This document shows, one piece after another, positions 26,532 to 27,847 of a DNA stretch of 64,000 bases. Location of the stretch: assembly GCA_951406725.2 (NCBI GenBank), contig OX597824.1, positions 52,948,001 to 53,012,000 of the forward strand, given 5' to 3'. Source of the DNA: Octopus vulgaris. Its lineage: Eukaryota. The notes beneath the pieces are model-generated. The model saw only the letters and a list, made by a program, of their open reading frames with translations, did not search any database and was not told the origin of the DNA. Every line of letters starts with the position of its first letter. Position 1 is the first letter of the stretch. A program made the position numbers and the translations under genes.

Positions 26532-26774
26532 TCATCATAATTCAGTGCAATCATTAACAGTACTTTCAAGCAATTCAGCCCCGAGCAACGCCGGGCAATT
26601 CTGCTAGTATATAATATATATATATATATATATATATATATATATTTATATATAGAGGGCATTATTACACATAAATGCATCACGCTAAGAGGGACATCAG
26701 TCATTTCTACCAAAACATTTTACTAATCATACCCAATGCAATTTTTCAAAGCAAGACATTTAAAAAATGAATTT

Positions 26775-26839
26775 AGTCTTATATCACCTGTGATTTCGCA
26801 CTTACCGCAGAATTTGCGACCATGCTCATCAGTAAGACT
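26775..26839 (-). ncRNA. Type-I hammerhead ribozyme, minus strand
   Basis: AGUCUUA-CUGAUGA-GCAU-gg-UCGCA-aauuc-UGCGG-uaa-GUGC-GAAAUCAC-ag-GUGAUA-UAAGACU; perfect 7-bp stem I, AUA triplet. Confidence 0.88.
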
Positions 26840-27281
26840 GATTCTGAACATATAAATAAACGACCAGTACCGTCAAAGTCGATTATTTTCGAAATTTTTT
26901 TCTTATGAGGTTTTTCACGCTATCTACCTGATAATTTCTTGTTAAGATTCCTTATTAAGAAGTTATCCTTAATTGTTAAATTTATTCCGAAAAAACTTTT
27001 CCTATCCGAAATGCAATTCGAAAAAGCCCGCCATTTACCGGATATATGATTTGTAAACTTCTCCATGTGCTTCGTTGGAATAGAGCAGTTAGCTCTATTG
27101 AATTTTTTGCTACCCTAATATTGATTTATTGATAATTTTATGATTAATTCCGAAATGGAATCGGCAGCTTATATTTGCTGCCGACAAAATGGCGCGAGTA
27201 CGATCATTTTGAAACTTTTAGGTCAGATATTGCCGAGGCATTAAGGTAGCTGCCTCGTGTAATTTCTATCCCTCCTGGCTC

Positions 27282-27382
27282 CTTTACTGATGAATTGCGT
27301 TGGCCTTTGGAAGATTGACTTGATTTAATTTAATCAGGCTGGTTTACCATTAAAAAACGCTGAAACAATGCATTGTCTAAAG
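27282..27382 (+). ncRNA. Type-I hammerhead ribozyme, plus strand
   Basis: CUUUA-CUGAUGA-auu-GCGUU...AACGC-u-GAAAC-AAUGCAUU-GUC-UAAAG; palindromic stem III, GUC triplet. Confidence 0.82.
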
Positions 27383-27847
27383 ATGAACAGGGTAAATGTT
27401 TTTTAATTTTTCCTCTGTTTCCGGAATTACTACTATTTGCGGTTGAAGACCTGGCTGCTTCTTCTAGTAGGTCGAACGGCCTATTATGGCCGTTCCTCAA
27501 TTTGTTGCTGAACTTATTAATAGTCTCTGACTATTTCCTTTTTCTCACTAGACCGCTGGTGGCAAAATAATATCTATTGAATTTTTTGCTACACTAATAT
27601 TGATATATATATATATATATATATATATATATATATATATATATATATATATATATATATATATATATATATATATATATATATATATATATATATATAT
27701 ATATATATATATATATAATATATATATAATATATATATATATATATATATATATATAAATATATATATATATAATATATATATATATATAATATATATAT
27801 ATATATAATATATATATATATAATATATATATATATTATATATATAT

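Follow-up and report, generated by a model that had tools for sequence, protein, structure and literature searches.

The window analysed here, 64 kb in length, is animal-type DNA rich in microsatellites and in remnants of Penelope-like elements (PLEs). Within it lies a segment carrying one hammerhead motif (HHR) on each strand and flanked on either side by a (TA)n tract, as an earlier note on this DNA had stated and as a tandem repeat scan confirmed. That note, made from the sequence alone, described the segment as two halves. We found instead three modules (A, B and C), which belong to two families of repeats. The features, with the evidence that delimits them where it applies, are the following:

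26608..26654, left (TA)n tract (period 2, 24 copies), into which the 3' end of family 1 runs
26655..26881, minus strand, module A, the 3' part of the family-1 monomer, with HHR-A (contig depth and joints, homologous relic)
26775..26839, minus strand, HHR-A (scan, shuffles, fold, variants)
26882..~27093, plus strand, module B, 5' portion of the family-1 monomer, which at this locus has the opposite orientation to A (contig joints, loose ends)
27079..27099, fold-back hairpin at the B/C junction (arms 27079-27086 and 27092-27099)
27094..27572, plus strand, module C, the family-2 monomer of 479 bp, strongly structured and non-coding (repeat, fold, ORFs, contigs)
27282..27382, plus strand, HHR-C (scan, shuffles, fold, loose ends of variants)
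27573..27604, plus strand, 32-bp copy of the start of C, the tail (direct repeat)
27603..27848, right (TA)n tract, into which the 3' end of family 2 runs

The direct repeat at 27094 and 27573, previously put at about 31 bp and taken to delimit a monomer of about 479 bp, was recovered with a length of 32 bp and a spacing of 479 (94% identity over 36 columns). It encloses HHR-C only, not HHR-A. The fold-back hairpin reported at the junction is also present. An 8-bp hairpin at most 10 nt from the B/C junction occurred in 3 of 1000 shuffles, and the one observed is likely a snap-back joining scar. The three other hairpins named in the note could all be located (27161-27184, 27234-27257 and 27475-27494), but they are confined to module C and do not lie around both hammerheads.

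Compared with shuffled sequences, the modules folded with z values of -5.29 for C (0 of 100 shuffles), +0.3 for A, and -1.9 for B. The strong fold of the whole segment (z -5.9, 20 shuffles) is therefore due to C. Paired bases make up 58-59% of the composite, mostly in local hairpins inside the modules, and the pairs between the two hammerhead regions number 0 on the plus strand and 10 on the minus strand. The longest ATG ORF inside the segment has 48 aa. The GC content of the 1-kb bins is 0.37 and 0.27, the second of these bins including the TA tract.

No PLE ORF (RT and GIY-YIG) adjoins the segment; immediately to its left is what remains of a Pif1 helicase (Pfam E 2.8e-13). This remnant lies within 24905-26607, together with a 165-bp tandem array of 5.2 copies. 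A GC-rich hairpin (26579-26596) and a CTAG (26604-26607) stand directly before the left (TA)n tract. From its general features, we take the region 24905-26607 to be a Helitron-like end.

The two hammerhead motifs

We scanned both strands of the window with a structural descriptor and identified a type I hammerhead on the minus strand (HHR-A, 26775-26839, core CUGAUGA from 26832) and another on the plus strand (HHR-C, 27282-27382, core from 27287). HHR-A has a stem I of 7 bp and a stem II formed by GCAU/GUGC, followed by GAAA and by a stem III of AUCA-CAGG-UGAU. It is predicted to be functional as a monomer, because its stem III has a real loop, and to cleave at 26782|26781, following AUA. HHR-C has a stem I of 5 bp, an A10.1-U11.1 closing pair, a 2-nt bulge, a stem II insert of about 50 nt, and a palindromic stem III (ACAAUGCAUUGU); its predicted cleavage follows GUC, at 27377. 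Both motifs show the type I features, i.e., a CUGANGA / GAAA / UH core, three stems, and an open stem I. With the same descriptor, none of 3000 dinucleotide shuffles of 26655-27602 contained a hammerhead motif on either strand. Hence, the scan and the shuffles uphold the earlier observation of two intact hammerheads on opposite strands. Self-cleavage of either ribozyme is a prediction of these models, in which the cleavage-competent fold lies above the minimum-energy fold by 2.6 kcal/mol in HHR-A and by 6.4 kcal/mol in HHR-C.

The variants found in contigs, read by hand, preserve the pairing of HHR-A: the changes at 26779, 26822, 26824, and 26833 all give a standard or a G-U pair. Loose ends at 27302 (in four of four runs) and at 27354 (in three of four) correspond to a second hammerhead variant around the same HHR-C stem II insert. 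Its stems II and III are altered yet complementary, as read by hand from contig loose ends that are unphased. The loose ends at 27302, 27354, and 27240 represent a common sister subfamily of C, which keeps the stem II insert and the hairpin stems, differs in the hammerhead stems and the hairpin loops, and is suited to covariation analysis.

The same scan identified other type I cores in the window at 21254 and 14114, both on the minus strand. When six hammerhead regions were aligned, only the CUGA.GA core could be matched between them. A candidate fifth hammerhead at 58219 (minus) was dropped, being a loose match with a stem II of one pair. No Rfam model of any kind matched the window at the gathering score, and none of the seven Rfam matches at E ≤ 5 was a hammerhead. 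Rfam also passed over the window's three PLE hammerheads, and its models appear insensitive to such long stem II forms.

Two repeat families in three modules

Contigs from four of the 24 listed public runs were aligned to 26300-27640 at 85% likeness. Part of the segment is contained in 20 of the 24 runs, with a best share of 0.41, so that none reaches half of it; the runs bear four organism labels, and no RNA dataset is listed among those containing parts of the segment. The contigs carry no information on strand or expression, including those of run X6, which may be an RNA run. The contigs placed in the four runs numbered 2473, 2556, 1757, and 186, counts that include the Helitron flank. All three modules showed many variant letters, and the parts other than the TA tracts were covered by many divergent contigs. 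Modules A, B, and C all belong to high-copy repeats.

An opposite-strand joint leading from 26882 to 27088 was found in all four runs, and five opposite-strand joints in total were recorded from 26877 or 26882 to 27079-27094, positions that come from short contigs at 85% likeness. The depths of the 26882 to 27088 joint (19.6 in run X6, 288.9 in run X2) recur for changes at 26851 and 26833 on the A side. In run X4, a contig record covering 26782-26877 (record 20) has a depth of 202.9, which is that of the joint from 26877 to 27093. These matching depths place the joint contigs on the A side, which means that elsewhere B on the plus strand continues into A on the minus strand. B and A are together the monomer of one family, internally inverted at this locus. 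The two breakpoints are reciprocal, which is what a single inversion of one template would produce.

Before 26882, a different, AT-rich sequence was found in at least 19 contigs of run X2, at least seven of X4, and at least five of X6, among 24 of the 471 loose ends. Other copies of B are thus preceded by an AT-rich linker. The family-1 unit would measure about 465 bp. This length, and the circular or tandem order of the unit, are deduced from the loose ends and from a weak 18-nt match at 40978-40995 (of 200 shuffles, none reached it when compared with the start of B, and eight of 200 did when compared with the whole segment). Four same-strand joints from A to B have other breakpoints (one contig each, depth 26-50, with sides of only 21-29 letters) and weakly suggest other inverted family-1 loci. 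We also considered B as a degenerate tandem copy of A, but found matches of only 8-28 nt, and inverted junctions explain the A to B joints better. Terminal inverted repeats were rejected as well: the sequence that precedes B elsewhere resembles the C repeat over an AT-rich stretch of about 12 nt, and then diverges.

Module C, the family-2 monomer, has its own variants in the contigs. Joints from 27560-27567 to 27094-27100, found in three of the four runs, are compatible with head-to-tail copies of C or merely with the tail copy, skipped by the tool. At this locus, a tandem of at least two hammerhead-bearing units is absent. Two further joints, from 27184 to 27387 (X4, depth 437) and from 27234 to 27308 (X6, depth 410), correspond to family-2 variants in which the hammerhead is wholly or partly deleted or replaced. 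The multi-copy depth of variants with a deleted hammerhead suggests that the ribozyme is dispensable for spread.

The two families are distinct, since A and B show no detectable similarity to C (z 0.4 and 1.1). We therefore rejected the reading of the halves as an inverted pair derived from a single pLTR. A decayed family-1 copy of A lies at 40.7-41.0 kb (40720-40997, plus strand; match to A at 40790-40948, E 1.6e-9). Its hammerhead core is broken, and after the copy come first an AT-rich linker, then a short stretch matching the beginning of B, and lastly (TA)n; no C lies alongside. No second copy of C was found within the 64-kb window. A 24-base motif from B had no locus in metagenome contigs or in viral contigs, collections that seldom contain animal repeats. 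The earlier note had held that independent occurrence of the halves, together with a unique junction, would leave two ordinary retrozyme or pLTR fragments. Such independence is seen for family 1, both in the relic of A without C and in the joints from B to A elsewhere.

The note had offered two readings, an ambisense ribozyme element of viroid-like type or, more conservatively, two different hammerhead elements joined back to back. The former finds no support in these data: B joins A elsewhere in four of four runs, the relic of A stands without C, the direct repeat encloses the plus-strand hammerhead alone, and A and B are dissimilar to C. The conservative reading fits the evidence.

Penelope-like elements and known hammerhead systems

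The PLEs of the window encode an RT followed by a GIY-YIG domain, as judged from RT clusters of the atlas and from Pfam hits that are weak (E 0.004) and below the cut-off. There is a CxCX5C linker in the ORF at 9686-10363 and a DKT motif at about 23840. Both match the marks of the Hydra clade of PLEs, whose members have DKT, the CxCX5C linker, and canonical hammerheads, and are almost always inserted in (TA)n (Craig et al. 2021, PMC8557442). In a decayed PLE at 13996-17375, the two pLTRs are homologous (E 1.4e-44) and inverted relative to each other, and each strand carries a hammerhead, at 14114 (minus) and 17256 (plus), the latter with a mismatch in stem III. Ordinary PLE geometry therefore gives opposite-strand hammerheads within 10 kb of the segment. 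The same element holds inverted pieces of its ORF end near 14313-14702, 15500-15890, and 16740-17050; DKT was unconfirmed in the one frame examined. Broken PLE copies lie at 20981-23940 (minus strand, with DKT) and at 8955-10363 (plus strand, with the CxCX5C linker). In the former, the hammerhead lies at 21254, GIY-YIG is preceded by a long Asn-rich stretch, and (TA)n is present at either end.

Judging from their sequences, families 1 and 2 resemble animal non-LTR retrozymes (Cervera and de la Pena 2020, PMC7229834; Li, Clavereau and Pollet 2026, bioRxiv 10.64898/2026.07.22.740005) or solo pLTRs, and are candidate retrozymes. Like these, they are non-coding, low-GC (<45%), high-copy units with one type I hammerhead each. 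Retrozymes have been proposed to be non-autonomous PLE derivatives, solo monomers are known, and animal type I hammerhead repeats have more generally been placed as non-autonomous dependants of PLEs (PMC7229834; PMC7761336; bioRxiv 10.64898/2026.07.22.740005). Unlike in those retrozymes, each family is here a single monomer, not a tandem of at least two hammerheads, and two different families are fused. At about 465-479 bp, the units are longer than the 170-400 nt given for retrozymes, but lie inside the 51-972 bp of the 2026 preprint.

The locus also resembles the pLTRs and inverted insertions of Hydra-clade PLEs (PMC8557442): these share the hammerhead in a terminal unit, the (TA)n target, the tail of 30-40 bp, and an inverted 5'-truncated copy by the 5' end, hence hammerheads on both strands. 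It differs from those insertions in having no RT-endonuclease ORF and in that the inverted partner comes from another family instead of being a same-family copy. Avsunviroidae and CarSV likewise have hammerheads of both polarities in a short non-coding stretch, and CarSV has a DNA form (PMC11722881). Yet, both of their ribozymes lie in one circular monomer and the CarSV DNA consists of head-to-tail multimers, whereas the ribozymes studied here lie in two different monomers joined head-to-head. Both are moreover of type I with PLE-type ends, while viroid-like agents have type III hammerheads according to PMC7761336. The segment has no head-to-tail repeat around both ribozymes and no compact whole-molecule fold (A alone, z +0.3).

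Origin of the segment and its surroundings

We propose, with a probability of roughly 80%, that in this segment two separate non-coding hammerhead families, each of high copy number, are fused head-to-head into a chimera, likely copied into (TA)n by the RT and endonuclease of a Hydra-type PLE. Family 1 would be made of B and A, and family 2 of C (479 bp and its 32-bp tail), both of them non-autonomous and retrozyme-like. The PLE enzyme would cut both (TA)n strands, after which one cut end would prime on family-2 RNA and the other on family-1 RNA. A single inversion of the family-1 copy, of the kind produced by twin priming, would fall about 43 nt upstream of the hammerhead of that copy. The heads of the two cDNAs would then be joined after a short snap-back, which would leave the hairpin and, by copying the last bases of B into it, produce a short similarity to the beginning of C. 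Both twin priming and snap-back joining are known mechanisms. Each ribozyme would process the RNA of its own family only, which would make their opposite polarity a by-product of geometry.

The 3' end of each family abuts (TA)n, and the locus shows the marks of a PLE insertion, i.e., a tail of the 30-40 bp size, an inverted 5'-truncated partner, and a microsatellite target. According to PMC8557442, many PLE insertions begin, at their 5' end, with an inverted copy that is 5'-truncated, and carry a tail of 30-40 bp, the latter also described in PMC11167929. A PLE protein cuts AT-rich DNA in vitro and extends both target strands, and an internal start creates the tail (PMC11167929). We infer a PLE helper for families 1 and 2, which showed no similarity to the window's three pLTRs (z at most 1.9). 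Naiads were discarded as helpers, since PMC8557442 gives them an N-terminal endonuclease and no canonical hammerheads.

The same chimera could also have arisen by two successive insertions, in which a family-2 monomer was already in place and a 5'-inverted family-1 copy landed against its 5' edge (or with the roles exchanged), both families targeting (TA)n or AT-rich sites. This course of events, which is part of the probability given above, is a possible but minority share of it. The window is crowded with (TA)n insertions (the left tract borders on the Helitron end, other tracts on the ends of PLEs), and PAc cleaves AT-rich DNA including its own ORF-pLTR junction (PMC11167929). Yet, no (TA)n and no target duplication remain between B and C, and the two 3' ends face outward exactly like those of a PLE inverted pair. 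We thus lean towards one joint event over two insertions at the same spot. Inversions and fold-back hairpins between microsatellites are places where chimeras arise, and the junction might be an artefact of assembly or library preparation, produced by fold-back and inversion between two repeats. None of the 32 pieces listed, beyond which there are 6998 unlisted ones, bridges either junction of the locus by 31 letters. This explanation is nonetheless quite improbable, given that other runs have inverted A-B joints, with other breakpoints, and that the same window holds a natural inverted pLTR pair.

It is unlikely that the composite of inverted A, B, and C (rcA-B-C) has multiplied in its own right, as a two-part subfamily bearing a ribozyme on each strand. 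Its clean (TA)n bounds, its two intact hammerheads, its fold as a whole, and a GATTA.T..CGAAAT motif (repeat D5) near the starts of both families are what one might expect of such a unit. However, the fold signal comes from C alone, the terminal repeat surrounds only HHR-C, and the common neighbours of B are A and the AT-rich linker, not C. The bins at both junctions do show contig depth above zero, but this depth may derive from contigs on either side. It is, if anything, less likely still that the fusion is copied onward as a unit, which would make it an animal genomic element with working hammerheads on both strands, a retrozyme chimera becoming an ambisense viroid-like RNA circle. If the segment were the DNA copy of a circular RNA, viroid-like or retroviroid-like, that has hammerheads of both polarities and a symmetric rolling-circle mode of replication, this would account for two intact opposite-polarity hammerheads within 600 nt and for the want of an internal ORF above 48 aa, and CarSV shows that such a DNA form can exist (PMC11722881). 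Yet, the pair has no terminal redundancy around both ribozymes, the pairing consists of local hairpins with few or no pairs between the hammerhead regions, and the modules are separate genomic repeats bearing PLE marks, which makes a viroid-like origin the most improbable of all.

The segment is probably ordinary jumping-gene debris rather than a viroid-like element. Read as a chimera of two PLE-dependent families, it matters little in itself, adding two families to a known class. These are probably undescribed as retrozyme-like families, although repeat libraries in supplements may already contain them. The literature searched, outside of which lay most subscription papers and supplements, described no animal genome in which two distinct hammerhead families are joined with opposite polarity. 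The locus carries a caution: ribozymes on both strands, often taken as a viroid-like hallmark, can arise in animal DNA through PLE inverted insertions. If both modules were inserted together, this would show that the two arms of PLE inverted insertions are primed on separate templates, in keeping with the extension of both strands in vitro. If the composite were amplified and expressed as a circle, it would show concretely how retrozymes could give rise to ambisense RNA replicons.

Several other repeats lie to the right of the segment. A nearly intact LINE at 29263-32782, which sits between long (TA)n and A tracts, has two overlapping frames that encode an AP endonuclease (Pfam E 4.8e-10) and an RT (Pfam E 2.9e-32). 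Four weak matches at 33780, 34345, 34910, and 35475 are spaced by exactly 565 bp, which points to a putative tandem array with a period above the 500-bp limit of the tandem finder; the hammerhead motif was not found in this region. Further on, at 51000-56500 on the minus strand, there are several related gag-like ORFs with zinc knuckles, with an apparent periodicity of about 2 kb.
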